A DNA stretch of 64,000 nucleotides, taken from the IMG/VR virus record IMGVR_UViG_3300005529_000026, positions 30,357 to 94,356 of that record; one strand, written 5' to 3'. The DNA comes from a virus. The notes under the pieces are model-generated. The model had not been told where the DNA came from. It saw only the letters and a program-made list of their open reading frames with translations, and searched no databases. Shown piece after piece: positions 27,251-42,161 of the stretch (positions are counted from its first letter, which is position 1; every line of letters begins with the position of its first letter). The position numbers and the translations under genes are program-made.

Positions 27251-27649
27251 TCACGCGACCTCTGTAAGCTCAAACTGCCCGAATGGAATGGCGACGGCTC
27301 CATACAAAGCGTCCTTCATCGCTGCCGCACCATCTGCATTCCACGAATGAATAACAACGTTTTCTCCGAGATAACGGCGTCCCGCCAAATACTTAGCCAC
27401 TTGAAAACCAGTTCCTTGAGGGCACGTCCCATCAGCATGAAGAACTCCTAGGTCGTGGTCTAGGAATACGATGTCAAACGGTTGAGGGGAACGTGCAATG
27501 ACCTCAATCGCTTCGTCGGCTGTTTGAACGAGTGTGAGATTGCTGACACGCTGCTTAAACCACGCAATGCGGTTGTCGCTGTCTTCCAGCAGGAGCACAC
27601 GAGCGCCGCGTGGAATTTTTATCTGCACGTTCAATTTCTTTCTCGACAT
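27251..27649 (-). CDS. Cyclic-phosphate-processing receiver-like domain protein
   Basis: LLLED...R...FLDHDLG...TG..VA...IHSWN..GA..M signature. Confidence 0.75.
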   Translation of the reverse strand: MSRKKLNVQIKIPRGARVLLLEDSDNRIAWFKQRVSNLTLVQTADEAIEVIARSPQPFDIVFLDHDLGVLHADGTCPQGTGFQVAKYLAGRRYLGENVVIHSWNADGAAAMKDALYGAVAIPFGQFELTEVA

Positions 27650-28008
27650 TACTCCTCCATTAGTGGCTTATGATTTGCGGTCGCGTCGTCCTTCTCTTTA
27701 CCGCACACTGTGCAGCGAACAAATGTTCGGTCATCAACGTTCTCTGCCCATTGCGGTTCGTGACACTCTTTGAAGTAGAGGAGGCCGCGAATGCGTAGCG
27801 CCGCTGCTTCTAGGCGTTCGGCGTCAGACAAAGTGAAGCGCTGCAAGTCATCTTCTGAAGGCTTGTACTCCTTCGCAATAACCGCTCGAACCATTCCTTC
27901 ACTACCGGCCCGCACAAGCTCCGGCTGATAGAACGTTGTCATCTTCTCGATGGCTTGCAGCGCGTCGTACCAATGAATCTTTGCGTCTACGTTTGCACTG
28001 CGCGACAC
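27649..28008 (-). CDS. Hypothetical protein with H/CxxC
   Basis: Coupled to neighbours. Confidence 0.5.
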   Translation of the reverse strand: MSRSANVDAKIHWYDALQAIEKMTTFYQPELVRAGSEGMVRAVIAKEYKPSEDDLQRFTLSDAERLEAAALRIRGLLYFKECHEPQWAENVDDRTFVRCTVCGKEKDDATANHKPLMEE

Positions 28009-29703
28009 TTACGCTCTCCTTCGGTTTGGTTGCTGCGCGAAGAAGCGATTCAACCGCGCAGTTACGTCGCCCTTCGACGCTCCGGGCGGGACGTTAATCT
28101 TCAGCCGCTTGCACAGGTTTAGCTGCGCTCTGCTAGGCACATCGTCTCGCCACGCCGCATCTCGGTTCGTCAGGTTGGCGTAGAACTTTCCGCCTAGCTG
28201 TCTCACCATTGCATCAGCGTTCGCAAACGCACTCTCTAGGTCATCTGCAATCAGATGAACCTGCGCACCACGCACCGTGCCGATGATGTGATACTTGTTC
28301 AGCAGGTCTTTGGTGATGACGAGTGTTTCGCCGCCGTGCATGTAGAGCACGTACCCCTCGTTATCTAGGGTAGGCACCCAACCGTTACTCGAATGCTTGA
28401 CGACCTCTGGCGAGTAGGTAACCCGGAATAGGTCAATTTCCTGCGCAAAAGTCTTGAGCTTCGTGATGTCGGTGAGTTGGTTGAAATCCGCATTCGGGTG
28501 CTGTTGCTGAGCCGCTTTTATTTCTTCTAAAGCAGCAACCGCAGACTTGCCCTTCAAGTCGAGCTTGGGGTTCATCCCCAGCAAGCCCGGCAGGGACACG
28601 AGGCTGTGCTTCATCGTGACATCCGCCACGTCGAGCACAATGCAATCCGTCTTAGCTAGAGGAACGCCTTTCTTTCTAGCTTCAACCAGATTGTCAATGC
28701 CTTCTGGAATGCGAGTGCCGCGCCCAATCTGCTGCGCGAACATCAACGGGCTTTTCGTCGGGCGAGCGGTGACAATGCAGGCAAGCTGCCAGTCATCGTA
28801 GCCTTCAGTGAGCACGTTGCAATTGCAGAGCACACGCAGCGTCTTCGCCTTGTGTGCCTTCAGCTTTTCCTCGCGGCTTGGGTCATCGCCCCAAACCGCC
28901 TGCGACGGAATACCGGCCCGCATAAACTCATCTGCTAAGTCCTTGGCGTGCTGAACATCCACGCAGAACACGACCGTTTGCCGGTCTTGCGCGTACTTCT
29001 GCCAGCCCTCAACAATCAGCCGATTGCGAGCAGGAGTATTGACCGTGCGGCCAAGGTCACCCGTCTCGAAGTCGCCAGCGCGGGTCTTAACACTGTCTAG
29101 GCTGGTATCCGTCGTGATGCGAATACCGCGTAGGTCAGAGAGCCAGCCCTGCTTAATCGCATCTAGAATGGACATCTGGTAAACGATTTCGTCGTAAACC
29201 AGATTAAGCCCAACTCCGTCACCACGATTCGGCGTTGCCGTGACACCAACAAGCAACTTCTTGTTGTTGTCGGCCAGCAGACCGAAGTGGTTGAAGATGC
29301 GGATGTAGCTGTCAGCCGTAGAATGGTGCGCTTCGTCGCAGATGATTGCGTCGAATTCTTCAGGCTTAAAGCGCTTGAGGCGCTCACTGCCCTCGCGTCC
29401 TAGAGTCGCAACGGACGCAACGATGACATTCGCGTTGGTGCTGGTCCACTGCTCGGCCTTCTCGATGTCAACATTGTAGCTTGGATTCCACTTGCGAATT
29501 TTGTCTACCGCTTGATTGACAAGCTCCTCGGTGTGAACCAGCACCATGATGCGCCCACGGAGACCGTGGTGATTCGGTAGGTTTGCGAACACGACCGTCT
29601 TTCCAGTGCCGGTCGGGAGAACGATAAGCTGCCTAGTGACACCTAGGGCATACTTGTTGTAGCTCTCCTTCAGCGCGGCGTTCTGATACGGTCGGTTAAG
29701 CAT
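28009..29703 (-). CDS. SF2 DEAH helicase (Irc3/ResIII-like)
   Basis: RPYQ, PTGTGKT, DEAHH, TATP, LTEGYD, QQIGRGTR. Confidence 0.93.
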   Translation of the reverse strand: MLNRPYQNAALKESYNKYALGVTRQLIVLPTGTGKTVVFANLPNHHGLRGRIMVLVHTEELVNQAVDKIRKWNPSYNVDIEKAEQWTSTNANVIVASVATLGREGSERLKRFKPEEFDAIICDEAHHSTADSYIRIFNHFGLLADNNKKLLVGVTATPNRGDGVGLNLVYDEIVYQMSILDAIKQGWLSDLRGIRITTDTSLDSVKTRAGDFETGDLGRTVNTPARNRLIVEGWQKYAQDRQTVVFCVDVQHAKDLADEFMRAGIPSQAVWGDDPSREEKLKAHKAKTLRVLCNCNVLTEGYDDWQLACIVTARPTKSPLMFAQQIGRGTRIPEGIDNLVEARKKGVPLAKTDCIVLDVADVTMKHSLVSLPGLLGMNPKLDLKGKSAVAALEEIKAAQQQHPNADFNQLTDITKLKTFAQEIDLFRVTYSPEVVKHSSNGWVPTLDNEGYVLYMHGGETLVITKDLLNKYHIIGTVRGAQVHLIADDLESAFANADAMVRQLGGKFYANLTNRDAAWRDDVPSRAQLNLCKRLKINVPPGASKGDVTARLNRFFAQQPNRRRA

Positions 29704-29707
29704 TTAG

Positions 29708-30025
29708 CTATCCTTGGAAGATGTTCGAGCGCCACACGCGGATAGGGCTTCGCGTGCGTGAGCCTTGGCCCAGACCGTCGCCGGTCGTGAACGACTCGGT
29801 AGCAGTAATCAAGCCTTCGCGGGCAATGCTATTAAGCACTGGGCCTACGGCGTGGTTATTCCTTGCTGTTGGGTGTGACCCGGAATCGAATTCTTGCCAC
29901 ACATCAATCGCGCTGAACATATTCTTCCGACGCGCAACTCGAAGCACGGCGTCACGGAATGCCGCCTTCCATTCAGGGTCAGCCGCCGCTTCTACGGCGT
30001 TCAAAATTGCTGCGGTAGTGCTCAT
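29708..30025 (-). CDS. Hypothetical protein
   Basis: Coupled ORF. Confidence 0.5.
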   Translation of the reverse strand: MSTTAAILNAVEAAADPEWKAAFRDAVLRVARRKNMFSAIDVWQEFDSGSHPTARNNHAVGPVLNSIAREGLITATESFTTGDGLGQGSRTRSPIRVWRSNIFQG

Positions 30026-30230
30026 ACTGTCTTCCCCACGGCCCAGTAGACCGAATCCCCAGACGGCATTGAGCGGTTGAGAATGCGAACCGGGCTAGAT
30101 GGGTCTAGATTGATTTCGCTCACTCGTGTTCTAAAGGCACTTCCGAATGTCGCGTGCAGATTGTTGCTTGAGAATTCCTGCCCGATGTGCTCCTTGAACA
30201 ATTCAAGGATTCGAGCTTTCTTCGTGAGCC

Positions 30231-30554
30231 TTACTGCCGTCTGTTGGGAAACCAGCCGTTGACAAATTCCCATTTCACTCCCTCGTCGGCGTTGATTTCT
30301 TGCCCGTCTCGTAACGGGCGAATGATGATGTAGCGGTCGTGCAGCGCTTGATGGCAGCGCTTGCACATCGTTATCATGTTGTAGCTGGCGTCATCCCCGC
30401 CTTGTGAGCGGAAGGTGATGTGATGAGCATTAAGCTGTTCGCGGGCTTTGCACCACGGCACTTTGCAGCGCCACCCATCCCGTTGATGAACCCTGTCACA
30501 CAGCTTCTTGTATTCTTTTTTCGGCAGCACTAAGCGGCTGCGCTTGGCCCTCAC
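30231..30554 (-). CDS. HNH endonuclease
   Basis: RDGWRC...C...HHI..RSQGG.D...N..T.C..CH...H. Confidence 0.88.
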   Translation of the reverse strand: MRAKRSRLVLPKKEYKKLCDRVHQRDGWRCKVPWCKAREQLNAHHITFRSQGGDDASYNMITMCKRCHQALHDRYIIIRPLRDGQEINADEGVKWEFVNGWFPNRRQ

Positions 30555-30556
30555 TG

Positions 30557-31222
30557 CTACTCCTTACCCTGATTCTCCGGGTAGTTGTTCGGGTCTTGCA
30601 GGTAAGCCACGCAGATTAGCTCGATGCACTTCGCATCGTTGATATCCATTAACTCTCCGGTCTCAGCATCGCGGGTGTTGCCGTACATGCGCCGGACTAG
30701 CTCAAACGCCGGGTCAACGGTTTCATCCTTTACTGAGCGCGGAATGCGCAAGTTCAGATACGTGAACGGCTCCATGCCGTCCTGCGCTCTAACTTCCTGC
30801 ACCTTGTTTTTAATGGTTTCTAGAGAATCACCTTGAATGGCCCCGGCGACTAACTGCTTCATCTGTTCGCCATGCTGTTCAGGGTTGAGCGTGAAGATTT
30901 CCTTCAGTTTGGAAATCTTTGTACCTTTCAAGTCGCCGCGTGACAGACCGAGCGTCCTAGCCTTCTTAGCAATGTTCGCTAGGTAGTAAGCCTGTCGAGC
31001 GCTCATGTCCAAGCCGCTCTGTTCTTCAACCCACGCGCCAAAGTCATAGCCCCAATTGCGGGCGTAGTCTTTCTCCTGCACTTCAAGAAGCAGGTCGCAC
31101 AAGTCGAAGAAGTTGTCTTCTAGCTGGCCCTTGATTTGGGTGATGCGTTCTTTTACGAACTGCGCTCGCGCCGCGACTTCAGGCGTGAACGATGTGACTT
31201 TCACTTCGATTTCAGTTGTCAT
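30557..31222 (-). CDS. Hypothetical protein
   Basis: 221-aa ORF in operon orientation. Confidence 0.6.
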   Translation of the reverse strand: MTTEIEVKVTSFTPEVAARAQFVKERITQIKGQLEDNFFDLCDLLLEVQEKDYARNWGYDFGAWVEEQSGLDMSARQAYYLANIAKKARTLGLSRGDLKGTKISKLKEIFTLNPEQHGEQMKQLVAGAIQGDSLETIKNKVQEVRAQDGMEPFTYLNLRIPRSVKDETVDPAFELVRRMYGNTRDAETGELMDINDAKCIELICVAYLQDPNNYPENQGKE

Positions 31223-31234
31223 CTAGGATTTTCT

Positions 31235-31301
31235 TGGGGTGACGGATGGGACTCGAACCCACTACTGGCTGAAGCCAAGTGTCTTCCATACTTCCGTCAC
31301 C
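31235..31301 (-). ncRNA. 67-nt tRNA-like RNA with tRNA-His-type acceptor (G-1:C73) and no 7-nt anticodon loop
   Basis: GGUGACGG/CCGUCACC+CCA; T arm GUGGG-UUCGAGU-CCCAU; central hairpin UUGGC-UUCA-GCCAG. Confidence 0.65.
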
Positions 31302-31306
31302 GTACT

Positions 31307-31396
31307 TGGTGGGGGCGGGAGGAATCGAACCTCCATTCCCCGTAGGGGAGGCGGTTTTACAGACCGCTGGACTTAGCCAGTTCGTCCATCACCCCC
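31307..31396 (-). tRNA. tRNA-Tyr(GUA)
   Basis: Cloverleaf; GCGGU-CUGUAAA-ACCGC; long variable arm; encoded CCA. Confidence 0.92.
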
Positions 31397-31405
31397 GGAA
31401 GGCAA

Positions 31406-31699
31406 TTACTCCGCGACCGGAGCTTCTTCTTGGTTGGCAGTTGCCTCTTTGAAGGCGTCGTAAAGCGTCTTCAAGAAGTTGTCGGCAGCCGCGAGCATGG
31501 GCTTGAATTGCTCAGCCGACATCGTGCTCACCGCGATGGCGACAAAGTTGATAGCGATGAGTTCGCGCATCTCACCAGACGAATACTGGTCAAGCACTTT
31601 CGTCAGTGCTTCGCTGTTCTGATTGCGCACATCTTCCGGCTGAATACCCAAGCCGGTAATTTCTTTTTCCAAGCCTTTTAAAGCGGTTTCAAATGACAC
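31406..31699 (-). CDS. Hypothetical protein
   Basis: GTG start after AGAGG. Confidence 0.5.
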   Translation of the reverse strand: MSFETALKGLEKEITGLGIQPEDVRNQNSEALTKVLDQYSSGEMRELIAINFVAIAVSTMSAEQFKPMLAAADNFLKTLYDAFKEATANQEEAPVAE

Positions 31700-31701
31700 A
31701 A

Positions 31702-31901
31702 TTATTTTCCTCTCTGAGAATTGTCCGTGACTTTCTTGCGAATGACCTTTACCGCTCGCTTGCACACTGTGCAGCGCCAGCCTCCTAGACCGCCAAATTC
31801 GGTGACCTGTGCTGTCTTCCAATCTTTACGCGCTTCTAGCGGTTTCTTTTTGCAGGCCCGCCGCAATCGGCGCAGTGATACGTAAACTTCGGTGACGCCA
31901 T
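31702..31901 (-). pseudogene. Small zinc-ribbon protein split by a 1-nt frameshift (or sequencing error)
   Basis: MASPKFTYHCADCGGPA and KKPLE...GWRCTVCK join in frame if the A5 run at 31847-31851 is A6. Confidence 0.55.
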
Positions 31902-31909
31902 TTCTTGCT

Positions 31910-32299: not shown

Positions 32300-32413
32300 C
32301 GCCGCTCTACCAAAACTTGCGAATGAAATGCACAGCCGTGTAAATCACCCCGGCCCAGAATGTCAGCCAGAGAAGAACCGGCGTCAGCATCACGCCTAGT
32401 GCGAACAAGCCGC

Positions 32414-32926: not shown

Positions 32927-33250
32927 GGGCGTTGAGGAACTGAGTCGCCGTCACTCAGTGCGTTAGCTGCTGATTAAGCAGCCGCCGCAGCCATAGCCAA
33001 AGGCTTGGCAGTTGTTTTTGTCCGCTGATTACGTCAGTCGGCTCACGGATTCGTCCATAGCACCTTCAACCAACCCGTCGAAACTTGGCACGCCCATCAA
33101 AGCCGCTCAGCCCATCTATCGCATGATGGCAGTCCCTAGAAGCACAGGTGCGCTTAACTGTCCGGGTCTGTTGTTCTGAGCGGCTATGGTGGACGTGGCG
33201 GGCATCGCAGCCCGCGTCCGAATCGGTAAAGCACTACTTCATACGAATCA
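32900..33250 (-). ncRNA. ssrA: Circularly permuted (two-piece) tmRNA; tag (A)AKPLAMAAAAA
   Basis: The 3' acceptor piece (GGAC-GCGGG..CCCGC-CACGUCC-ACCA, ending 33187) precedes the 5' piece (GGGCGUG..UUCGAC from 33095). G3:U70 is present, helix 2 pairs between the pieces, and the tag ORF is 33009-32974. Confidence 0.9.
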
Positions 33251-33262
33251 ATCTTGGTTGGT

Positions 33263-33591: not shown

Positions 33592-33666
33592 AAGCGGTCA
33601 CTCAGGGAATCGAACCCTGTTCCACGTTTTCCGTGAAGTGTGTCTTACCAATAGACGAAGTAGTAG
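33592..33666 (-). ncRNA. Degenerate tRNA-like element
   Basis: Intact D arm (GUCU..AGAC) and T arm (CAGGG-UUCGAUU-CCCUG); anticodon arm and acceptor stem non-canonical. Confidence 0.5.
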
Positions 33667-33677
33667 AAGGTTGTTGT

Positions 33678-33756
33678 TGGTAGGCGAGGAAGGAGTTGAA
33701 CCTTCGACCTAGCGATTATCAATCGCTTGCTCTAAACCGGGCTGAGCTACTCGCCT
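33678..33756 (-). tRNA. tRNA-Ile(GAU)
   Basis: AGCGA-UUGAUAA-UCGCU; cloverleaf; CCA. Confidence 0.92.
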
Positions 33757-34379: not shown

Positions 34380-34464
34380 TGGTGCCGGATGAGGGACTCG
34401 AACCCCCACGCCTTGCGGCGGCAGATTCTAAGTCTGCTGTGTCTACCAATTTCACCAATCCGGC
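34380..34464 (-). tRNA. tRNA-Leu(UAG)
   Basis: GCAGA-CUUAGAA-UCUGC; long variable arm; CCA. Confidence 0.93.
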
Positions 34465-34739
34465 TAAATGTCTGCGCGTTTTGGGTTGACCGATTTCGCG
34501 CCCCACGGAATATGCTCGCCCCTTACGGACGGCTACCCCTTTCATGTTTTGCCCTAGGGTTGAATCACAACCCCCGCCTACTTACAGCTTATGCTCCGGG
34601 GCGTTTCATCCCGACCTTATAGCGCTGAAAGATTCACTGCTTTCGACTTTGCAGCTTACTTGGTTTCTCGTCTGCACATTCCTAGACGACTTTTTGCGGC
34701 TAGTCGCCCAACCGTTGCGTTGATTTTTTAGGGCAAACT

Positions 34740-34817
34740 TGGTTGCGGGCACCGGAGTCGAACCGGCTATCTTTGCGTTATGAGCGCAACATGGTTATCC
34801 GTGTCCACTCGCCCGCA
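34740..34817 (-). tRNA. tRNA with CAU anticodon (Met or Ile2)
   Basis: UUGCG-CUCAUAA-CGCAA; T arm; CCA; lacks the initiator GGG/CCC anticodon stem. Confidence 0.85.
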
Positions 34818-34921
34818 GCACTTAAAAGAATATATTTTTACGAAAGCACGTATGTAGGATAGGCGTGTTACTGACGCCTCGTTTTAAGTCTGCGCCGCAC
34901 AGTGTGCGGAGCCTTCTGGAT

Positions 34922-35048
34922 TGCTGCCCTTGGTGGGAGTCGAACCCACATTTCAGGCTGAGCAGGGTACAGGTGCTAATCCGCTTCAGGCGGGGATAGT
35001 CTGTAAAGCCCGCGACAGCCAGCGTCCTGCCAATTAGACGACAACGGC
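34922..35048 (-). ncRNA. tRNA-like RNA with a 59-nt structured segment replacing the anticodon loop
   Basis: Acceptor GCCGUUG/CAAGGGC; D arm GUCU..GGAC; T arm GUGGG-UUCGACU-CCCAC; 3' AGCA. Confidence 0.6.
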
Positions 35049-35487
35049 GTAGCGGACAACTAGCGAACCAACCCAGTTCTCCTACATCAGATTTGCCTAC
35101 CGTTCGTGTAGACCGTCGTGCGTCAACCGCGTCCTGACTCTCGTGGACTTCAGCGGCAATCTTCTCCGCTTCGTCAATCGCGGCGTGCAGAACCTGATTG
35201 GCAGTGCGTAGGGCCATCGCGGTGCCCTTCGCCCGCAGAACTTCTTCCTCGTGCAGCGCATGACGTGCGGCGGCAGAACCCTTAGCTTCGAGATTGGACA
35301 GCGTGCGCGGGAAATACTTCTTCATCACAAAAAACGCGATGACCGCGATAACTCCAAGTGCTAAAATCGTTGACATCCTCAATGTCTCCTAGAAAAGTTT
35401 AGGAGCCGGTAAGCCTCAGCCCGGCTCCCTTGATTTTTCGGGGGCGTTGCGGCCCCTCCACCAGAGGCTTGTGTGTGTGTCTACTTC

Positions 35488-36354
35488 TTAGACCTGCACA
35501 ACCGGGTCGGTTTCGCTTTGCGAGTTGCCGCTGCCGAATTGCGCTTCCATCTCCTGCTCCATCTGCTGCTCGTAGCGCCGCGCTTCGACACTGAGCACGT
35601 ACTGCTGATAAAGCGGGCCGAACTCTCCGGGGTTGGCGACACGCTTCACGCTGGGGAACGTGAGAACGTGGTAGCTGAAGCCGCCATTGCCTTGCGGCAC
35701 AAAGACCGGCTTGATGGTGAAGCTGTAATCCCAGAGATTGAGAACCTTGTGCTTGCTCTCCTCTGGCTTCTTGCCCTGCTGAATGTCCTGCATCAGCAGA
35801 GTCTTCTCCATCTGCATGTCCTCAGCCATCTGCGTCCACAGAGCTTTCAGGGGCGAGATGCTGGTGCCGCTAATGTTCATCATGCGAGGTAACATCGTCT
35901 CGCGCTGAATGAACATCAGGTTCCACTTGTCGGAACACTCCGGCTTCTGCTTGCCGTTCCACTTGGAGTAGAGACACTCCGCGCAGGTCTTTGCCTTCGG
36001 AAACTCAACGAAGGGGCTAGGAACGATGCCATCGTTCGAGCGACATTCGGGCTTCGCCTTCAAGCCCGCACCTTTGATGAACTTCGCCCGGCCTTTGCGC
36101 AAGCGCAGAGGAACGACACGGATTTCGCTGTAGATGCGCCCACTGCGCACATCGTACAGGTCACCGACCTTCAGTTCCCGGTCAACACCCTTCTCGACAT
36201 CAAAACCGCTGGCAACGCCGAGGCGGGTGCTGCTCTTGTGAATCAGTTCGATGAAGCTGGGCTTGATGAGGGTATCTTCAAACCCAACCCCGCCCTCGTT
36301 CACAGCGCGGGCAAGGGCTTGATTCGGGTCAATGCGAACCAAATCAGTGCTCAT
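35488..36354 (-). CDS. Putative ssDNA-binding/annealing protein with Cys cluster
   Basis: PEC.S.DG..P...CAEC..S.W....PEC pattern and acidic tail; function inferred. Confidence 0.55.
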   Translation of the reverse strand: MSTDLVRIDPNQALARAVNEGGVGFEDTLIKPSFIELIHKSSTRLGVASGFDVEKGVDRELKVGDLYDVRSGRIYSEIRVVPLRLRKGRAKFIKGAGLKAKPECRSNDGIVPSPFVEFPKAKTCAECLYSKWNGKQKPECSDKWNLMFIQRETMLPRMMNISGTSISPLKALWTQMAEDMQMEKTLLMQDIQQGKKPEESKHKVLNLWDYSFTIKPVFVPQGNGGFSYHVLTFPSVKRVANPGEFGPLYQQYVLSVEARRYEQQMEQEMEAQFGSGNSQSETDPVVQV

Positions 36355-36429: not shown

Positions 36430-36458
36430 ATCATACCACTCACCTTTTGGTGTGTCAA
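36430..36458 (-). promoter_or_regulatory. Sigma70-type promoter
   Basis: TTGACA-17-TATGAT. Confidence 0.7.
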
Positions 36459-36479
36459 GCGTTTTCTTTGTCTACGCTT

Positions 36480-37631
36480 TTACTGGTATTCGGTGACTTC
36501 TTTGCCGTCCTTGGCCTTGCGGAGCAGGTAGGCTTCGCTGACCGACTTCAGGATGACGCGGCCCAGCTTGGGGTCTTCCCTCTCGAACAGGGGTTTCACT
36601 ACAACCCCTTCCCGCAGGTTGACTCCACACCCAGATACCGTTTCTACGCCGTTTGTAGCCGTTTCTAGCGCCTCGCGGGTGAACTGGCCTAGGTAGACCT
36701 CTGGAACCAGTTCGAGGCCCGCAAATCGGCTCCAAAGCTGAAGTGGCCCGTAGCTGAGGAAGTGACCCTGCCCCGGCTTGCCAACGTAGATGTCAAACAC
36801 TCGGAAACCAAGGTCGGTCGCGTAGCCCAAGTCCTGAATACCGTTTCCGTAGACCTCACCGACCACGAAGATTGCCTCGATTGGAGCACTACCTTCTCCG
36901 TTGAACTCCTGCATTTTCGTGCAGAGCTTGCGGAGCTTGGATTCCAAATCGTGCTTTTTGGCAGCCCGGATGTAGGTATTCCCGGCGTTGGCCTCGTTGT
37001 TTTCGATGATGAACCCGCGTGCCCCTAGTCCCTTGCTAGAAACAGCAAACTGGTCAGTTGCAGGCCAGTACACCGCCTGCATGAGCGTGCCGTGAATCTT
37101 CTCGGTCATCACGACCGGCTCGCCTTCTTGGAAGACGCGCTTGTACGCCTTGATGTTCTCAATGTCGTACCGCAGCAGGTTGAAGTCGCCGCGAGGCCGC
37201 TGAATCTGTCCTGCAAAGTGTGCAGGGATGGGCGGCTCGTACTTCGTGACGCCCAAAACTGTTGCACAGTCTGCGCCTTCGCACAGACACAGAGTTGTGG
37301 CCCCGGCGCTTTCTCCTATCCGAGCAAGCACCTTGCTGTACGGGTAGAGCAAGCCCTGCGAAAGCGTCTTGCGCAGCTTGATGGCCTTGACGCGATTCTT
37401 GGCCGGGCCAGCCAGCTTGCCGGTCAGTCCCAGTTCTTCGAGGATGTCTACCGGCACGATAGAGCCTTCGGGGATGTAGATGGCCAAATCCCCGGAGTTG
37501 AAACTGCCTTTCTGGATGACGCACTTGTAATCCGCGACGTTCGCGGCTACGATAAAGTCTGCTCCTTCAATAGGTTGCACGTCATCCACGCGCACAACTG
37601 GGCATGCAAAATCAGCCATTCTAACCTCCAT
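36480..37631 (-). CDS. ATP-dependent RNA ligase, DRB0094/Rnl2-like family
   Basis: N-terminal OB fold (PIEGAD.I...LRKTLSQGL), EKIHGT, GEVYG.GIQ, FDI, REGVVVKP, LKSVS..YL. Confidence 0.92.
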   Translation of the reverse strand: MEVRMADFACPVVRVDDVQPIEGADFIVAANVADYKCVIQKGSFNSGDLAIYIPEGSIVPVDILEELGLTGKLAGPAKNRVKAIKLRKTLSQGLLYPYSKVLARIGESAGATTLCLCEGADCATVLGVTKYEPPIPAHFAGQIQRPRGDFNLLRYDIENIKAYKRVFQEGEPVVMTEKIHGTLMQAVYWPATDQFAVSSKGLGARGFIIENNEANAGNTYIRAAKKHDLESKLRKLCTKMQEFNGEGSAPIEAIFVVGEVYGNGIQDLGYATDLGFRVFDIYVGKPGQGHFLSYGPLQLWSRFAGLELVPEVYLGQFTREALETATNGVETVSGCGVNLREGVVVKPLFEREDPKLGRVILKSVSEAYLLRKAKDGKEVTEYQ

Positions 37632-37644
37632 GCAATTTTTCTTC

Positions 37645-37673
37645 TTGACAGTTAAGCGTTTTCATGGTAAACT
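37645..37673 (+). promoter_or_regulatory. Antisense-oriented sigma70-type promoter
   Basis: TTGACA-17-TAAACT on + within a minus-strand gene block. Confidence 0.55.
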
Positions 37674-37725
37674 AACACCGCTTGGCTGTCGGGCGAAGAC
37701 TTATAGTTTGTTTTGTGGTGGTTTT

Positions 37726-37881
37726 TTACAAACAGAGACGGTTCAGGAATGACAGAGTGGATAGCTGCTCTGCATCTTCGTAGATGATTTCTGTTTCTTC
37801 ATCTTCTTCAGGATACGGCAGTGATTCGTCTTCTTCGTCGTACAGCACATCGTCTTCAGGAAACGCTCCACTAACTGACAT
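37726..37881 (-). CDS. Highly acidic 51-aa protein (not in ORF track)
   Basis: MSVSGAFPEDDVLYDEEDESLPYPEEDEETEIIYEDAEQLSTLSFLNRLCL; ATG abuts the upstream stop; GGAGG RBS. Confidence 0.6.
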   Translation of the reverse strand: MSVSGAFPEDDVLYDEEDESLPYPEEDEETEIIYEDAEQLSTLSFLNRLCL

Positions 37882-38697
37882 CTAGCCCTCCGTAGGAATT
37901 GGTCGTTGGTTGATGGTGAACAGGTCGCCTATATTCTCGTCGTACTGCACAATCTCGATAGAAGTTGCAGGGTCGTAGTTGAAAGCATTGAGCGCCACAA
38001 CCCTAGGGCCGGACAATTGCACCACCCGGTGTTTGTGGTAGTGGCCGAAGAAATGGAACCGAGGCTCGCCGCTGCGGTGCAGGTAATTGAAGCCGGGGCA
38101 ACCGCTGGCTTCTTCGTCGGGGTCGAGTCCTAGAATCTTCTTTATTTTCTCTGGGCAGTCACCTTGCTTGGGTAATGGCTGCATGCCGAATGGAGCCTCA
38201 TGGGTAATGAGCACGTCGAACTTGCCCGCGTCCGCTAGTTTGTCAACAGCAGATTTACGCACATGCAGTGCGGCAGCATTAGCCCCCATCCGCTGCCCAC
38301 CATGATTCAGCAGACTCATACGGGCCATCAGAATGCGCCCCTTGTTTTCATAGCTCTTGGGGCTGTAGTTTCCCCAAACTGAGCCGACCTTGATTCCTAG
38401 AACATCTGTGATGCCCCCGTCAGGCAGAAGCGTCATGTTGATGACACGCTGCGGGTCTTGCATCCAAGCATCTAGAAGCCGGTAGCTTTCGTGGTTGCCG
38501 GGGTTAACGTACGTCGTAATAGGTGCTGGCAGATGGCGTGTCCAAAACAGATTGAATTGCCTGCTTCCCACTCCGAGGTCACCGACATGAAGCACGGCGT
38601 CGAATTTCATTCCTAGCCGGTCTTCTAGGTTGATGAGGTACTCGTACATGCTGAGAATCTCTCCGTGCGTGTCGCCAACCACAGCGATGTTTTTCAT
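37882..38697 (-). CDS. Calcineurin-like metallophosphoesterase
   Basis: GDTHG, VGDLG, GNHE, THEAP, FGHYH. Confidence 0.88.
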   Translation of the reverse strand: MKNIAVVGDTHGEILSMYEYLINLEDRLGMKFDAVLHVGDLGVGSRQFNLFWTRHLPAPITTYVNPGNHESYRLLDAWMQDPQRVINMTLLPDGGITDVLGIKVGSVWGNYSPKSYENKGRILMARMSLLNHGGQRMGANAAALHVRKSAVDKLADAGKFDVLITHEAPFGMQPLPKQGDCPEKIKKILGLDPDEEASGCPGFNYLHRSGEPRFHFFGHYHKHRVVQLSGPRVVALNAFNYDPATSIEIVQYDENIGDLFTINQRPIPTEG

Positions 38698-38953
38698 TGA
38701 GAAACTCCCATGTTGCGCTTGTAAATGTCCCGGTAAGCATCACGCGCCTTTCGCACCACTTCCGCGTATTCGCGTGAAGCTCGCTCTTGCTGTTCACGTT
38801 CGTCTTGAATGCACAGCATGCAACGGTATGTCGGGCTTCCAGCGAGTTGCGCAATGGATTCTTGCCAGTCCATTTCGCAGTCATGCACGGCACACCAGCC
38901 CATCTTTGCTAGCCGCCGCCTAGCCATGCCTGCGATAAGACGCTTAATTGAGT

Positions 38954-39220
38954 TCATTTGCCGAGAATCTCCTTCATATCCATACCTGTTCCATTGCACG
39001 GCTGGCAGACAGCCGTACTCCACAGCAGCACGAGCGGGTTAATGTCTAGAAACCAGATGCGGCCCTGTTTATCTACGGCGTTAGGATTGGGCCTAACCCA
39101 AGTCGGGTGCCCGCCCGTTGCGCCGTACTCGTCCGTCTCTCCGGTTTTGACAAAGCCGCCTGTGATTCCAGCCTCAACCTCGCCGCGCCCTTTGCACACA
39201 GGACAAATCGGCAACATCAT
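38954..39220 (-). CDS. DnaJ-type zinc-finger protein
   Basis: CPVCKGRG...CQPCNGTG. Confidence 0.6.
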   Translation of the reverse strand: MMLPICPVCKGRGEVEAGITGGFVKTGETDEYGATGGHPTWVRPNPNAVDKQGRIWFLDINPLVLLWSTAVCQPCNGTGMDMKEILGK

Positions 39221-40356
39221 TCGCCGTCTCTCCTGAAGGACTCGTCTTTTGTGCAGTTCGGTCTAATCATCTTCCAGATGGTCGCTGTGGGGTCGCCGCC
39301 GTCTAGCATTTGAAAGCAAATCGAGGCGTACTGCCGACTCTCTGGCTGGTTGAAGTGAAACGCACACGCCTTGCGGTGCAGCCGGGTGTCTCCGTTGTGT
39401 ACGGGTCGGTTGATGTAAACTTCGTGTGCCGTTTCTAGAATCCGGTGGTATTCGTGGTCGAGCTTGTCACGCCACTCCGTGAGCCAAGCACGGAAATGCT
39501 CTGGCATGGTCTCATCGTTAATCCAAACGCGAATCTGGTCGTCTTTGCCTTCGGACATCAACTCCCAAACCGCTCTAGGATTCACGCCCGTCACGATGCG
39601 GTGTAGTCGAACATAGTCCTCGAATTTCACCTTAACCTTGACGGGCGGGCATGACGAGCCACGCGAGTAGGTCAGCACATATCCTTCGCGCCCGGCTTCA
39701 TTTTCAGTGGCAACCTCAGACAATGATTTCGAGTAACGCTGAACGACACGGACACCATTTGCTTTGGCCCACTTCCACAGTTCTTCGTAACCCATTTCCG
39801 CCCCGGTTCGGATGTTCACCATTCCGGTCAGAATGCACGTCTCGAAGTCGTACTTGCACACGATGCGGTTTTCGTCGTAGATAATCTCGAACAGAGGCGT
39901 CCAGCCTTCAGGCCACACCATGAACGAAAATGGGATAGGTTCGCGCTTCGCACGCAGCCAGTTAGTCGCCCACTTCGCCTGCGGGGAAGTGAACGAGCCG
40001 CGAGTGGCTATGCCGACGTACTCGCCGTACTGGTAAAGAATTCCTAACGAGCCGTCTAGCTTTTCTAGAACCAAAGGCTGAACGTTAGGTAGATTCGCTT
40101 CCATCGTTTCGGGAATAGAAGCGGTGTTGAGGTTGTGGAATTTCTTGTACGGGCGTGCAATGACGTTCCCTTGCTTGTCTACAATTAGTCCACGGCAATA
40201 ATCAATTGTGCCGTCACCCCAAGTCCCATAAATCTGGGCGTAGGGCGTGTAGTTGTAGATTTCAAGAGGAAGTTCAGGATGCTGCTGAACGGAAATTAGC
40301 CCGTTATCAATGTGCTGCTTGAGAAGGTTAACATCGAGCAGTTGAGAGATGAGCAT
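39217..40356 (-). CDS. T4 Rnl1-type RNA ligase
   Basis: IYNYT, CRGLI, RPYKKFHN, EKLDGSL, TRGSF, FEII, REGYV, KVK..DY; likely start ATG 40356. Confidence 0.92.
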   Translation of the reverse strand: MLISQLLDVNLLKQHIDNGLISVQQHPELPLEIYNYTPYAQIYGTWGDGTIDYCRGLIVDKQGNVIARPYKKFHNLNTASIPETMEANLPNVQPLVLEKLDGSLGILYQYGEYVGIATRGSFTSPQAKWATNWLRAKREPIPFSFMVWPEGWTPLFEIIYDENRIVCKYDFETCILTGMVNIRTGAEMGYEELWKWAKANGVRVVQRYSKSLSEVATENEAGREGYVLTYSRGSSCPPVKVKVKFEDYVRLHRIVTGVNPRAVWELMSEGKDDQIRVWINDETMPEHFRAWLTEWRDKLDHEYHRILETAHEVYINRPVHNGDTRLHRKACAFHFNQPESRQYASICFQMLDGGDPTATIWKMIRPNCTKDESFRRDGE

Positions 40357-41210
40357 TTTGACCAATTCTCCGGCGCGGGCAGGGTCTTCTTGAGTTGAAG
40401 ACCTTCTTCCTTGGCACTGTCCATGTGCGCAATTTCTCTGACGGTATATTCCCGCCAGCACAGCGGGTGTCCGGTACGTGCAGGGCTTACAACTGAATCG
40501 AATTGCTTTGTCGTAAGGATGGTTTTCGCAACGAACGCAGCGGAGCCGTCTGACTGCGGGAATACTTCTCCCATTACTACGCCGTCGCGGTTGTGCCATG
40601 CCCAGCCACGCTCGCCGCAGTAGAGCAGGCGCATCGTCTCGCCCCCAACCGGGAAGCGGAATGCACGAGTACGCTGCTCTAGGCGTTTGTTCATGTGATT
40701 CGTGACGATGAACCTGATAAGTTGCATTTTGGCCCCCTAGCTCTGCCCAAATCCTTCCGCAGTCCACACCCAATGTAAAAGCTGGCGCGGTGTGCAGTTC
40801 AACGCTAAGCTATTGTCCACGGCAAGCGCCATGACGAAGCCGACAGGTAGAAGCACGGCTGCGATAGCGCGAAAGGGAAGACCGAGATAGCGACCGATGA
40901 TTTTGAGCACCTTCATTTCAGTTCCTCCAAGATGTGCCACACGAGACCATTTGCATCTTGCAATGTGGCAATGCAGTCGTAGGTTTTAGAGCTATCTCCG
41001 AACGGGACGCCGGTAAAGGCAACGATAATCACCCTAGGAACCGTTGGCTTGGCGTCGAAATCGTCTGGGTGAATCTCCCAAAGAATGAGATTGCCGCGCT
41101 GGATTTGAACGTCCAGCACGGCAGCCTTCGGGTGTAGTGGGAGAAGGTACGTTCCGACTTGAAACGGCAACTTGTGCTTGTGGATGACATTCTCAACGAT
41201 GCGCGACATT

Positions 41211-42161
41211 TTAGAAATTCCCTTCTGCAACTTGGTAGACCTTGACTCCATTTGCTCGCCACATATCAACAACACGTTGGCGGTCATCAATCACGAAGGC
41301 GATGCGCTCCTTCGGGAGTCGGTTTAGAATTTCTTGTTTCACCACGGTGTCGTCTCGCTTGTCGCCGCCCTTGCGCATGAAGATGTGGCGATATTTGACG
41401 CCGTACTTTTCTAGCCAAGTAGTTGTTTTGAACCCGGCCTTGTCCATCGGTCGTCCTGACACGATGACGACTTCGTATTCCTTGGACTCGCTTAGAGCTT
41501 TCACCCACTTCAGAACGGCTTCAATCGGTTCATCTTCGTTGCAGTGCTCGAAGAAAGCGTTCCAGTCTTTTTTTGCTCTGCCGGTGCCCCTGCAAGTAGG
41601 GCAGCGAGAATCTTGAGTGCCGCCGTTTCCGTTGCACGCTGTGCAAGGGCGTGACTCTACAAACTGTCTACGCGCCCGCACATCGGACAGGGTGCCATCC
41701 ATGTCCACCAAGACCAGTTGCTTGTCTACGGGAAAATGAAGCAGCCCATTGTCCAGCGCCATGCGCTCGATGACATGACGGCCCACCCGCGCTTTGCCTT
41801 CACGTTGCGCGTCCCGGCGAATCAGTTCCTCGATGCGAATATCTAGAAATGACGAGTCCATCACAAGAGGAACGCCGACACTCTGCGCTAGCTGATGCCA
41901 GCGCTCGCGGGTTCTGTGGTTCAGGTTGGTGTTGTCCACGACAACGCTCTTGCCAGCAGCTAGGGCTGACAATGCCCGGTCTTCAGCGATGCGGCGCACT
42001 TGCTTTTCGGTCTCGTGACTGAAACGATATTCAGGATTGAGTTCTAGCCGAATGTCGTCCCAATTGACGCGAACCCAACCCTCAGCTTCTAGATTCTTGG
42101 CTTCTGTTGATTTCCCTGATGCAGGAAGGCCGACAAGCAGCAACAGCACTTGCTTATTCAT
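41211..42161 (-). CDS. Polynucleotide kinase/3'-phosphatase (T4 PseT-like) with inserted Zn finger
   Basis: GLPASGKST kinase P-loop; DMDGT, SGR, K and DDR HAD motifs. Confidence 0.93.
   Translation of the reverse strand: MNKQVLLLLVGLPASGKSTEAKNLEAEGWVRVNWDDIRLELNPEYRFSHETEKQVRRIAEDRALSALAAGKSVVVDNTNLNHRTRERWHQLAQSVGVPLVMDSSFLDIRIEELIRRDAQREGKARVGRHVIERMALDNGLLHFPVDKQLVLVDMDGTLSDVRARRQFVESRPCTACNGNGGTQDSRCPTCRGTGRAKKDWNAFFEHCNEDEPIEAVLKWVKALSESKEYEVVIVSGRPMDKAGFKTTTWLEKYGVKYRHIFMRKGGDKRDDTVVKQEILNRLPKERIAFVIDDRQRVVDMWRANGVKVYQVAEGNF

Follow-up and report, generated by a model that had tools for sequence, protein, structure and literature searches.

Clustered RNA ligases, end-healing enzymes, tRNAs and a permuted tmRNA in a temperate phage of a soil acidobacterium

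Introduction

Why would a phage carry two RNA ligases, several RNA-end-healing enzymes, tRNAs and a two-piece tmRNA within about 15 kb? This question is raised by a 94-kb prophage, the whole of virus record IMGVR_UViG_3300005529_000026, of which we analyzed a window of 64,000 nucleotides (positions 30,357 to 94,356 of the record). A first-pass annotation, made from the sequence alone, had read positions 27251–42161 of the window as a layered counter-defense in which RNA repair, replacement tRNAs, possible decoys and ribosome rescue act together. Here, we present an analysis of the parts of this locus, of their co-occurrence in other phages and metagenomes, and of the explanations that compete for them.

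Results

The prophage is flanked at both ends by 43-bp repeats that lie within a tRNA-Lys gene, and this repeat-bearing tRNA-Lys has an identical copy in Acidobacteriota. The phage is temperate, and its host is a soil acidobacterium. The segment at 27251–42161 sits inside a replication and nucleotide-metabolism block and includes two HNH genes; every protein and RNA element listed for it is on the minus strand, at or near the position given in the first-pass annotation (Table 1). All five predicted RNA-end-processing genes of the phage genome fall in 16% of its length, for which a uniform-placement estimate gives a chance of about 0.003, a null that is too lenient because phage genomes are modular. 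The backbone has the conserved order exo, 288-aa gene, variable slot, 221-aa gene, HNH gene, helicase, an Rnl5 slot, and primase; the contents of the variable slots differ among four relatives (L023, G056, G074, and G064). The helicase is kept in the last three. In L023, a homologue of the 288-aa protein immediately precedes the permuted tmRNA, and homologues are also found in G056 and G064; the Atlas matches of the 221-aa protein are viral hypothetical proteins only.

Table 1. Features of the locus, with positions in the window
Feature	Position	Strand	Evidence
cREC (cyclic-phosphate-processing receiver-like) protein, 132 aa	27251..27649	-	Pfam PF20274 (cREC_REC) 50.9 bits, cut-off 27
ResIII/DEAD-type SF2 helicase (RadD-like), replication backbone	28009..29703	-	Pfam ResIII 105 bits, Helicase_C; PHROG 16
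221-aa protein, downstream border of RNA island	30557..31222	-	homologues flank tmRNA/tRNA slot in L023, G056, G064
TL1, 64-nt mini tRNA-like RNA	31238..31301	-	weak tRNA-Sec match 27.9 bits; T-arm scan; fold z -4.3
tRNA-Tyr(GUA)	31307..31396	-	ARAGORN; Rfam 29.4 bits; clean cloverleaf, fold z -3.2
Circularly permuted (two-piece) tmRNA gene	32974..33249	-	RF04321 83.4 bits, cut-off 47
TL2, tRNA-like remnant	33596..33664	-	ARAGORN at relaxed threshold only; T-arm scan; fold z -0.5
tRNA-Ile(GAU)	33678..33756	-	ARAGORN; Rfam 68.6 bits
tRNA-Leu(UAG)	34380..34464	-	ARAGORN; Rfam 57.8 bits
196-nt spacer between tRNA-Met and tRNA-Leu, status uncertain	34545..34740	-	sequence reading; fold z -1.9
tRNA with CAU anticodon (Met or Ile2), CCA encoded	34740..34818	-	ARAGORN; Rfam 29.9 bits
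TL3, tRNA scaffold	34925..35048	-	Rfam tRNA 39.4 bits, cut-off 29, 58-nt insert
288-aa protein (Pam3 gp34-like), upstream border of RNA island	35488..36354	-	Atlas matches
Candidate sigma-70-like promoter TTGACA-17-TGnTATGAT, between Rnl5 and RNA island	36430..36458	-	consensus scan, 11/12 matches
Rnl5-type (DRB0094/NgrRnl) ATP-dependent RNA ligase, 383 aa	36480..37631	-	PF21189 57.9 bits and PF09414 67.8 bits
Calcineurin-like metallophosphoesterase, 271 aa, weakly Dbr1-like	37882..38697	-	PF00149 37.2 bits; phrog_1649
88-aa protein, CxxCxGxG zinc-ribbon-like motif	38954..39220	-	sub-threshold DnaJ_CXXCXGXG match
Rnl1-like RNA ligase, 379 aa	39217..40356	-	PF09511 52 bits; aligned to T4 Rnl1 structure 2C5U
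DUF7352 protein	40913..41290	-	PF24043 41 bits
T4-type Pnkp (polynucleotide 5'-kinase/3'-phosphatase), 316 aa	41211..42161	-	HAD_PNKP 110 bits and AAA_33 80.6 bits
ClpB/ClpA-D2-like single AAA+ ATPase, beyond 27251–42161	44428..45531	-	AAA_2 and ClpB_D2-small

The three end-healing enzymes that had been claimed, namely Pnkp, a metallophosphoesterase and a cyclic-phosphate receiver-like protein, are all present. Pnkp has the T4-type domains, aligns to the T4 Pnkp structure 1LTQ and contains the P-loop GLPASGKST and the motif DMDGT; it also has a zinc-ribbon insert (residues 161–199), whose match to the DnaJ-type CxxCxGxG zinc finger scored 23.3 bits, below the cut-off of 32.7, and DnaJ matches were weak. 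For the metallophosphoesterase, the closest solved structure is Dbr1 (E 4e-5), and the motifs GDTHG, GDLG, GNHE, and GHYH are present. The cREC protein keeps the family-invariant DHD, TG, and HSxN residues, which are common to seven phage homologues, and lies 9–12 kb from both ligases with the helicase and HNH genes in between. With catalytic motifs intact, Pnkp, the ligases and the phosphoesterases make up a plausible heal-and-seal set.

Both ligases of the first-pass annotation were found, and they belong to different families; the description "unrelated" did not hold, since the two families share one nucleotidyltransferase superfamily. In the Rnl1-like ligase, K99, D101, G102, E224-G225, K240, and K242 are invariant across 26 homologues. 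Relative to T4 Rnl1, it represents a divergent clade (TIGR02308 64.9 bits; cut-off 242). A 518-aa open reading frame was rejected as its gene because lengths of about 360–415 aa are shared by the database gene call and every homologue; the longer frame is over-extended, and the real gene has 379 aa. The second ligase, described as "DRB0094/Rnl2-type," consists of a PHA02142 OB domain and an RNA_ligase domain, passes the DRB0094 equivalog model TIGR02306 (210.9 bits; cut-off 151), and has EKIHGT as motif I, aligned to K170 of NgrRnl. It is of the DRB0094 type, and its N-terminal OB fold makes it an Rnl5 rather than an Rnl2 ligase. DraRnl (Deinococcus DRB0094) and NgrRnl (Naegleria; PDB 5COT), which seal duplex nicks with RNA as the 3'-OH strand, have the same layout of an N-terminal OB domain followed by the nucleotidyltransferase domain; the phage enzyme differs from them in that its motif I is the Rnl2-like KIHG and not KLDG, in being phage-borne, and in being partnered by an Rnl1.

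As claimed, ARAGORN found four canonical tRNAs (Tyr, Ile, Leu, and Met), of which tRNA-CAU is also retained in the L023 module. Compared with host-clade loci, the phage is enriched in the codons CUA (4.9-fold), ACA (2.0-fold), and AUU (1.5-fold), and for tRNA-Leu(UAG) and tRNA-Thr(UGU), at least, codon usage can be a sufficient explanation. The suggestion that the tRNAs replace those cut by anticodon nucleases gained nothing from these data, codon compensation fitting Leu-UAG and Thr-UGU equally well. The permuted tmRNA was borne out by its Rfam score. Its gene is ordered as an acceptor piece ending in ...GUCCACCA, an intervening segment of ~88 nt, and a coding piece with the tag AKPLAMAAAAA-UAA; the same tag was obtained with ARAGORN at a relaxed threshold. 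The alanine identity elements G3:U70, A73, and CCA could be read directly from the sequence. Homologous permuted tmRNAs occur in L023, G056, G074, and G063, and the tags of related phages include ANSNELAMAA and ATPKAKAFAAAA. Acidobacteriota genomes have a one-piece tmRNA. The candidate promoter, a consensus match only, would give the RNA island a separate transcription start.

Three anticodon-remodeled tRNA-like RNAs had been described, and all three have canonical T-arms; TL1 and TL3 are convincing and TL2 is weak. TL1 has an acceptor helix of 8–9 bp, a loop of 3–4 nt in place of the anticodon loop, and CCA after it. TL2 has a D-arm and a 5-nt "anticodon" loop, its acceptor stem is broken, and its fold is as stable as that of shuffled sequences; it is probably a decayed tRNA. 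The minimum-energy fold of TL3 is a cloverleaf (z -2.4), the anticodon stem of which runs into an irregular hairpin of ~59 nt, so that there is no 7-nt anticodon loop. ARAGORN -i reads TL3 as Arg(CCU) with a 50-nt intron, and a 186-aa open reading frame (34822–35382) reads straight through it. Homologues of TL1 to TL3 were found in none of the fetched relatives, and the proposals that these RNAs serve as decoys or that RNAs of the phage itself are substrates of the ligases found neither comparative nor structural support. The 196-nt spacer is closed by a 9-bp stem and has a hairpin resembling a T-arm, with no Rfam match and no homologue in the fetched relatives.

In metagenome contigs, Pnkp-(Rnl5)-Rnl1 is a recurrent tight cassette. 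In 14 of 22 loci, Pnkp is located upstream of Rnl1 at a distance of 1.6–3.6 kb, and Pnkp-Rnl5-Rnl1 was seen at four loci whose samples have similar names; three of these have identical spacing and therefore perhaps represent one lineage. Genes for tRNA or tmRNA are absent from the surroundings of many Pnkp-Rnl1 cassettes. Among 49 Rnl1-bearing viral records, 21 have cREC, 12 HAD_PNKP, and 13 the Rnl5 OB domain; 25 have a tmRNA, an enrichment for which genome size and shared descent act as confounders, all seven tmRNA-bearing records that are at least 90% complete being 200 kb or larger. By comparison, tmRNA is encoded by 2.3% of phage genomes (PMC9004378). Homologues of the AAA+ ATPase are recurrent neighbors, lying <10 kb from Rnl1 in 17 of 80 viral loci.

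A near-identical set is found within 21 kb in an unrelated lineage (L043, L068, and L093), comprising tRNAs, cREC, metallophosphoesterase, Rnl5, Rnl1, GOLLD RNA, tmRNA, and a Clp-like AAA+ protein. In the phage's own family, Rnl5 is present in 5/5 other records with a permuted tmRNA and permuted tmRNA in 0/17 Rnl5-negative records, an association that may stem from shared descent. The distance between Rnl5 and the tmRNA is 2.7–6.5 kb in this phage, G063, and L023, which represent three lineages; G056 and G074 have the tmRNA 27–32 kb from the ligases and their tRNA islands elsewhere in the genome. The parts recur together, with a physical linkage that varies from 3 to 32 kb.

Discussion

The identities of the parts, their intact motifs and their recurrent co-occurrence are best explained, with a probability that we put at roughly 0.6, by a heal-and-seal cassette and an RNA-gene island that jointly sustain translation in lytic growth. 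These would be two accessory modules joined in variable slots of the replication-gene block. In the cassette, Pnkp would phosphorylate 5'-OH ends and take off 2',3'-cyclic or 3'-phosphates, with the metallophosphoesterase and the distal cREC as additional end-healing phosphoesterases; the Rnl1-like ligase would seal single-stranded loop breaks, e.g., in tRNA anticodon loops, and the Rnl5 ligase nicks within RNA helices. The island, with its own putative promoter, would supply four tRNAs, the two-piece tmRNA, which would depend on SmpB and proteases of the host, and two or three tRNA-like RNAs of non-canonical form. In combination, the modules may keep translation going while host nucleases cut tRNA, rRNA or mRNA: the enzymes would restore cut RNAs, the tRNAs would provide isoacceptors scarce in or destroyed by the host, and the tmRNA would release ribosomes stalled on truncated mRNA. 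We infer the enzyme substrates, the host nucleases and the cooperation of the modules. From the layered counter-defense first suggested, the plausible repair set and the recurrent cassettes can be kept, and the recurrence in the unrelated lineage and the tmRNA/Rnl5 association inside the family fit it too; a single integrated system is not supported, as island and ligases are no longer linked in some relatives (G056 and G074) and a separate promoter is predicted for the island. The general idea is not new, phage tRNA provisioning and heal-and-seal repair having been published already (Iyer et al. 2021, PMC7824862).

Alternatively, independent accessory genes could share a hot spot: mobile cargo would gather, without functional coupling, in slots of the replication block, namely between the genes of the 288-aa and 221-aa proteins and in the surroundings of helicase and primase. 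The tRNAs would then serve codon compensation, the tmRNA would manipulate proteolysis or ribosome pools of the host, and RNA repair would be the task of the ligase cassette. The conserved backbone with varying slot contents in L023, G056, G074, and G064, the two HNH genes, the separate predicted promoter, the three enriched codons, and the distant tmRNAs of G056 and G074 all fit such a hot spot; nevertheless, we regard it as doubtful, because the near-identical combination is found again in an unrelated lineage, the tmRNA/Rnl5 association inside the family is perfect, and Rnl5 and tmRNA stay <7 kb apart in three lineages despite rearrangement.

It is also conceivable that Rnl5, perhaps with Pnkp and the phosphoesterase, serves replication or DNA repair rather than RNA repair, acting on nicks with RNA as the 3'-OH strand at primer or ribonucleotide junctions. 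Rnl5 lies between helicase and primase/helicase in G056 and G074 and adjoins primase in L023, the segment is wholly within the replication and nucleotide-metabolism block, NgrRnl and DraRnl are generally known to seal such nicks, and T4 Pnkp is active on DNA ends too. However, Rnl5 is repeatedly partnered by the loop-specific ligase Rnl1, cREC, and tRNA/tmRNA islands, and nothing indicates that ordinary primer removal is missing from these phages, which makes this role improbable. We give very little credence to the idea that the cassette matures unusual RNAs of the phage, for instance a TL3 pre-tRNA from which a protein endonuclease excises the 59-nt hairpin before Pnkp and ligase join the halves. 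TL3 does retain the acceptor, D, and T arms, a group I intron would need a longer insert, and the predicted arm has, by eye, opposed 3-nt bulges around a 5-bp helix. Yet no splicing endonuclease was found, and cutting out the insert never leaves an ordinary anticodon loop of 7 nt with U33 and a purine at 37. Relatives that retain the ligases have no homologue of TL3, a two-piece tmRNA requires cutting and not joining, and the cassettes are widespread without any such RNAs.

The proposed joint support of translation resembles several known systems. In phage T4, Pnkp and Rnl1 reportedly reverse PrrC cleavage of tRNA-Lys, a finding attributed to Amitsur et al. in 1987. The acidobacterial phage likewise encodes a T4-type, bifunctional Pnkp, which contains the P-loop and DxDGT motifs and aligns to 1LTQ, and a ligase with the Rnl1 motif I, IV, and V residues. 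It differs from T4 in the zinc-ribbon insert of Pnkp, in its second ligase (Rnl5; Rnl2 in T4), in the additional metallophosphoesterase and cREC, and in its acidobacterial host, and, unlike for T4 with PrrC, we know of no cognate anticodon nuclease. In jumbo phages, tRNAs have been described together with several ATP-dependent RNA ligases that were considered non-redundant, a kinase-phosphatase of the PNK-HAD type, calcineurin-like phosphoesterases, and an association of cREC with RNA ligases; the text has 0 occurrences of tmRNA (Iyer, Anantharaman, Krishnan, Burroughs, and Aravind 2021, Viruses 13:63; PMC7824862). Logic and parts list match; the acidobacterial phage, by contrast, is 94 kb and temperate, and RtcB, Ro/TROVE, RlaP, and a CCA-adding enzyme were not found in it. 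Similar in layout are the tRNA arms of large cultured Streptomyces phages. That of Enygma (PP358745; Karimacvirus) combines, within 25 kb, numerous tRNAs, a tmRNA and a non-canonical "tRNA-OTHER" with genes for a polynucleotide kinase, a phosphoesterase, and an Rnl1-type RNA ligase; its tmRNA is one-piece, its tRNAs are far more numerous, no Rnl5 is annotated in those 25 kb, and it belongs to another phage lineage and host phylum, with a ligase identity of only about 35%. A heal-and-seal kit next to phage tRNAs and tmRNA is a package type already described for large phages; here, it is carried by a prophage of 94 kb whose host is a soil acidobacterium.

Phage-borne permuted tmRNAs that mismatch the host type are also found in the OM43 phage Melnitz and pelagimyophages; 50 of 53 two-piece phage tmRNAs are aquatic (Buchholz et al. 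2022, PMC9004378). Those phages are marine, whereas the tmRNA described here belongs to a soil-type acidobacterial prophage family and adjoins RNA ligases, and no riboswitch was found. Bacterial rsr-yrlA-rtcBA operons combine Ro60 and a tRNA-like Y RNA with a neighboring RNA ligase and so resemble the phage locus in that tRNA-like non-coding RNAs adjoin RNA repair enzymes; Ro/TROVE and RtcB are among the proteins that the phage was found to lack, and its sequence has no Rfam match to Y-RNA/YrlA. Unlike YrlA, TL1 is without a Ro-binding stem and ends in CCA like a chargeable minihelix.

The repair proteins encoded at 27251-42161 form a real and recurrent heal-and-seal module, and the tRNAs, tmRNA and tRNA-like RNAs lying among them (the RNA island) constitute another recurrent module. 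The modules tend to be found together in genomes, frequently though not always as neighbours. Every gene of the set is on the minus strand, within a long replication and nucleotide-metabolism block (thymidylate synthase, ribonucleotide reductase, UvsX-like recombinase, primase/helicase, exonuclease and Clp-like AAA+ ATPase). Using profile searches, we found cREC (a cyclic-phosphate-processing receiver-like protein), an SF2 helicase, two HNH endonucleases, an L5 gp82-like protein, a DRB0094-type RNA ligase (Rnl5), a calcineurin-like metallophosphoesterase, an Rnl1-like ligase, a DUF7352 protein and a T4-type Pnkp (5'-kinase/3'-phosphatase). Together with ARAGORN and Rfam matches to the RNA genes, these hits confirm the enzymes and RNAs listed in the first-pass annotation; its description of the two ligases as unrelated is incorrect, both belonging to one superfamily.

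The record, rated 100% complete by CheckV (94,356 bp, with the window covering 30357-94356), is an integrated prophage: its two ends share a perfect direct repeat corresponding to the 5' half of a tRNA-Lys(CUU) gene, and a tyrosine integrase gene adjoins one of them. More than 120 genomes of Acidobacteriota (Terriglobia) contain an identical copy of the complete tRNA-Lys, indicating that the host is likely a member of the Acidobacteriota. A megablast search of the whole window against cultured phages gave no match.

Coordinates of features in the window, unless a locus (L, viral loci around Rnl1 homologues) or a fetched viral relative (G) is named
Feature	Position	Strand	Remark
cREC	27251-27649	minus	
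221-aa gene	30557-31222		bounds RNA island
TL1, tRNA-like RNA	31238-31301		compact acceptor/T-arm minihelix, perfectly paired; CCA follows; fold z -4.3
TL2, tRNA-like RNA	33596-33664		good D and T arms; fold z -0.5, no better than shuffles
196-nt spacer	34545-34740	minus	between tRNA-Met and tRNA-Leu; 9-bp closing stem UUUGCCCUA/UAGGGCAAA
TL3, tRNA-like RNA	34925-35048		tRNA model 39 bits; cloverleaf fold, z -2.4
288-aa gene	35488-36354		bounds RNA island
Rnl5	36480-37631	minus	
Metallophosphoesterase	37882-38697	minus	
88-aa ORF	38954-39220		between Rnl1 and phosphoesterase genes
Rnl1-like ligase	39217-40356	minus	
Pnkp	41211-42161	minus	
AAA+ ATPase	44428-45531		single-module, ClpB/ClpA-D2-like; PHROGs label 'ATP-dependent protease'
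tRNA-Phe(GAA)	59783-60464	minus	585-nt intron (ARAGORN, introns allowed); probably spurious, less probably a group I intron
Tyrosine integrase	62765-63682		adjoins one record end
43-bp direct repeat	genome 78-120 and 94237-94279 (window 63881-63923)		record ends
GOLLD RNA	L043:14288-14694, L068:14391-14802, L093:14005-14412		313-327 bits
Permuted tmRNA	L008:14940-15233, L011:14912-15206		alpha-type, 84-90 bits; records 280-308 kb
Interrupted Rnl5 homologue	L009, L010 10001-11667		residues 5-181 and 179-373, ~570 bp gap
Rnl1 homologue	G072:C1:24567-25700		one in-frame TGA; relative 98% complete
tRNA-like elements of relatives	G074:57596-57690; G070:105075-105165 and 106330-106420; G064:58850-58990		canonical T arm; uncalled by ARAGORN

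The repair enzymes

In Pnkp, the kinase motifs GLPASGKST and NWDD align with GCPGSGKST and NRDD of the T4 enzyme (AAA_33, 80.6 bits), and the phosphatase motif DMDGT aligns with T4 DVDGT (HAD_PNKP, 110 bits; cut-off 27.6). A CxxCxGxG zinc-ribbon insert (residues 161-199) directly follows the DxDGT motif; the 88-aa ORF encodes a motif resembling it. The Rnl1-like ligase has 379 residues according to the database gene call and its homologues all have 355-444, while the 139 extra N-terminal residues of a 518-aa ORF match no family and are absent from every homologue. Its motifs I, IV and V (EKLDGSL, EGYVL and KVKVK) align with T4 K99, E227 and K240/K242, and its catalytic residues (Lys, Asp, Gly, Glu and Lys) do not vary among 26 homologues. 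Because the protein passes the Pfam model RNA_lig_T4_1 (52.1 bits; cut-off 28.3) but falls below the threshold of TIGR02308, the T4 RnlA equivalog model (64.9 bits; cut-off 242.25), we assign it to an Rnl1-like clade and not to the T4 RnlA equivalogs. The alignment to 2C5U extends to T4 residue 309 of 375, leaving the distal C-terminus unaligned; the C-terminal helical domain of Rnl1 confers tRNA anticodon-loop specificity.

Rnl5 has an OB fold (PF21189, residues 12-97) followed by a nucleotidyltransferase domain (PF09414, residues 171-363 of 383) and, as expected of the Rnl5 type, no further C-terminal domain. It can be aligned to residues 13-178 of NgrRnl (5COT), with the lysine of EKIHGT corresponding to NgrRnl K170, and passes the equivalog model TIGR02306 (210.9 bits; cut-off 151.15). 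All five metal-binding motifs of the metallophosphoesterase (GDTHG, VGDLG, GNHES, THEAP and GHYHKH) are present in an alignment to Dbr1 (PF00149, 37.2 bits; cut-off 21.5), and its closest solved structures are Dbr1 debranching enzymes (E 4e-5). cREC matches PF20274 (50.9 bits; cut-off 27), and its residues D64-H65-D66, T80-G81 and H101-S102-x-N104 are invariant in 8/8 sequences. The role predicted for the cREC family derives from its location in operons with RNA ligases or NAD/ADPr enzymes; in the window, 8.8 kb that include helicase and HNH genes separate cREC from Rnl5. A candidate sigma-70-like promoter with a strong consensus match separates Rnl5 from the 288-aa gene at the head of the RNA island, suggesting that the enzymes and the RNAs may form separate transcription units. 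For the proteins of 288 and 221 aa that flank the island, the ESM Atlas returned only viral hypothetical proteins and no RNA-related lead.

The RNA island

The tmRNA is permuted, matching RF04321 over the full model (1-213) with 83.4 bits (cut-off 47); its gene order is 3' acceptor piece, intervening segment, 5' acceptor and tag. It has the alanine identity elements G3:U70, A73 and an encoded CCA (GGGCGUG pairs with CACGUCC, followed by ACCA), and the tag frame GCC AAG CCU UUG GCU AUG GCU GCG GCG GCU GCU UAA gives AKPLAMAAAAA by direct reading and by ARAGORN. The phage genome encodes no SmpB, and the tmRNA would therefore have to use that of the host. A standard one-piece tmRNA is present in 5/5 Terriglobia genomes sharing the tRNA-Lys (152-183 bits), and in none of these five did a permuted form score above the cut-off; thus, the two-piece tmRNA differs from the host-clade form and is no copy of it. 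The idea that the Clp-like AAA+ protein is an unfoldase dedicated to the phage tag was set aside, the phage genome having no ClpP.

ARAGORN and Rfam identify tRNA-Tyr(GUA), tRNA-Ile(GAU), tRNA-Leu(UAG) and one CAU tRNA. The codons CUA and ACA, which match tRNA-Leu(UAG) and tRNA-Thr(UGU), are 4.9-fold and 2.0-fold more common, respectively, in the phage than in host-clade loci. A T-arm motif scan found exactly three tRNA-like elements beyond the called RNAs (TL1, TL2 and TL3), none of which combines a 7-nt anticodon loop on a 5-bp stem with a 7-bp acceptor stem, as a canonical tRNA does. TL1 has a loop of 3-4 nt in the anticodon-loop position. TL2 has a 5-nt loop and lacks a proper acceptor stem (4/7 pairs), and is probably a decayed tRNA; its identification as a Y-RNA partner of Ro was rejected on the grounds that there is no Ro and no Rfam Y-RNA or YrlA match and that it folds poorly. 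Neither TROVE (Ro, PF05731) nor RtcB (PF01139) had a match at E <= 1 in the whole 94-kb genome. In TL3, the anticodon stem is prolonged into an irregular 59-nt hairpin, and there is no anticodon loop. A 186-aa ORF extends across the whole of TL3, which is therefore a candidate for a separate RNA on the basis of its covariance score and fold. The 196-nt spacer has a T-arm-like hairpin directly before the 3' strand of its closing stem (fold z -1.9) and no match in Rfam.

Co-occurrence of repair enzymes and RNA genes

Pnkp is encoded upstream of Rnl1, at a distance of 1.6-3.6 kb, in 14 of the 22 metagenome contigs (loci) that carry the closest Rnl1 homologues. The order Pnkp-Rnl5-Rnl1 is found in four metagenome loci, three of which may represent one lineage because their spacing is identical. 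Within 10 kb of these metagenome cassettes there is no tmRNA, and no more than a single tRNA. Among 49 Rnl1-bearing IMG/VR records, cREC is present in 21 (adjacent to Rnl1 or within 4 kb of it in 10/21), HAD_PNKP in 12 and the Rnl5 OB domain in 13. A standard tmRNA occurs in 20/49 of these records and a permuted one in 5/49, compared with any tmRNA in 2.3% of phage genomes (PMC9004378); however, all seven tmRNA carriers among the records that are at least 90% complete are 200 kb or larger, and genome size therefore confounds this enrichment. The co-occurrence samples were picked by similarity to proteins of the window phage and are phylogenetically non-independent.

An unrelated lineage (L043, L068 and L093) carries within 21 kb eight tRNAs, cREC, a calcineurin-like phosphoesterase, Rnl5, Rnl1, a GOLLD RNA, a tmRNA and a Clp-like AAA+ ATPase, a parts list that nearly equals that of the window. 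The GOLLD RNA is located ~3.3 kb downstream of an adjacent Rnl5-Rnl1 pair; a tRNA adjoins it, as does a tmRNA in L068 and L093. A search of one literature library for a connection of GOLLD RNA with RNA ligases gave none. The AAA+ ATPase also recurs beside Rnl1, being near it in 17/80 viral loci and often ~2 kb upstream (L028-L030, L047, L048, L063, L064, L071, L072, L075, L088 and L092). In L008 and L011, an Rnl5 ligase gene lies no more than 5 kb from a permuted tmRNA and three tRNAs and is on the strand opposite to them. The gap in the Rnl5 homologue of L009 and L010, judged from the matched residues, suggests an intron, intein or other insertion just past motif I.

IMG/VR single-protein searches with Rnl1 and with the primase/helicase found no relatives; a search with ribonucleotide reductase recovered the phage family (60-79% identity; contigs of 88-127 kb). 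The family backbone consists of exonuclease, 288-aa gene, a variable slot, 221-aa gene, HNH, helicase, a slot that may hold Rnl5, and primase/helicase. The ligases and RNA genes fill variable slots, and their order differs between members. Among 24 family records, a permuted tmRNA scores above the cut-off in G055/G056, G063, G006 and G074. Every one of these has the Rnl5 OB domain, while none of the 17 Rnl5-negative records has a permuted tmRNA (Fisher's exact p ~5e-4, a hand count that includes the window phage, leaves out the near-duplicate G055 and ignores shared descent). Rnl5 and the tmRNA are 3.2 kb apart in the window phage, 2.7 kb in G063 and 6.5 kb in G006/L023. The first-pass annotation had proposed co-occurrence across related phages as a check: the parts do recur together in genomes, but the distance between Rnl5 and the tmRNA is inconstant, reaching ~27 kb in G056 and ~32 kb in G074. 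The in-frame TGA in the Rnl1 homologue of G072 may stem from a sequencing error, mark a pseudogene or indicate recoding.

Possible functions and relation to known systems

Based on established enzymology, a division of labour is likely. Pnkp and the two extra phosphoesterases would convert 2',3'-cyclic-phosphate/5'-OH ends to 3'-OH/5'-phosphate ends, the Rnl1-type ligase would seal breaks in tRNA loops, the Rnl5-type ligase would seal nicks in duplex RNA, and the tmRNA with host SmpB would rescue ribosomes stalled on cut mRNA.

Alternatively, the repair cassette and the odd RNAs could be one device, a reading that we consider very improbable. TL3 would then be a pre-tRNA with a hairpin insert that is cut by a protein nuclease, the halves being rejoined by Pnkp and Rnl1/Rnl5, and TL1, as a minihelix that can be charged but has no anticodon, would titrate an anticodon nuclease or a synthetase. 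If true, the processing of TL3 would mean that a bacterial virus has a pathway for splicing tRNA without a ribozyme. However, no excision of the TL3 insert yields a normal anticodon loop, a two-piece tmRNA requires cleavage and no ligation, and the related proposal that the ligases act on the phage's own RNAs is unsupported. TL1, TL2, TL3 and the 196-nt spacer have no homologues in any fetched locus, including those of relatives that keep the ligases, and the idea that the tRNA-like RNAs are decoys finds no support. A lesser version is that Rnl5 would be functionally coupled to the two-piece tmRNA in the family of the window phage. The suggestion of replacement tRNAs is also weakened, as at least two of the tRNAs, those for Leu(UAG) and Thr(UGU), have an ordinary explanation in codon usage.

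The pairing of phage tRNA genes with RNA-repair enzymes is already known. Iyer et al. 2021 (PMC7824862) described phage tRNAs and RNA repair as counters to host attacks on translation, with several non-redundant RNA ligases, PNK-HAD kinase-phosphatases, calcineurin-like phosphoesterases and cREC among the parts; tmRNA is absent from their text. The window matches this concept. The cultured Streptomyces phage Enygma has a similar set (tRNAs, tmRNA, an odd tRNA, RNA ligase, polynucleotide kinase and phosphoesterase) within 25 kb, and the marine phage Melnitz has a tmRNA form mismatched to that of its host (PMC9004378), comparable to the mismatch described here. Our analysis extends the kit to a family of ~90-110-kb soil phages whose hosts are likely Acidobacteriota. 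What is modestly new is the two-piece tmRNA in an acidobacterial prophage family whose host clade has the one-piece form and, compared with the published survey, the recurrent Rnl1/Rnl5 pairing and the Rnl5/tmRNA association. If these pairings hold when genome size and phylogeny are controlled, ribosome rescue would be a third arm of the phage defence of the translation apparatus, beside tRNA repair and tRNA supply.

Additional tRNA-like elements in relatives

The tRNA islands of relatives also hold tRNA-like elements. The G074 element combines a Pro-like UGG loop with an aberrant D region and a long variable region. Unusual tRNA-like genes seem common in the family of the window phage.
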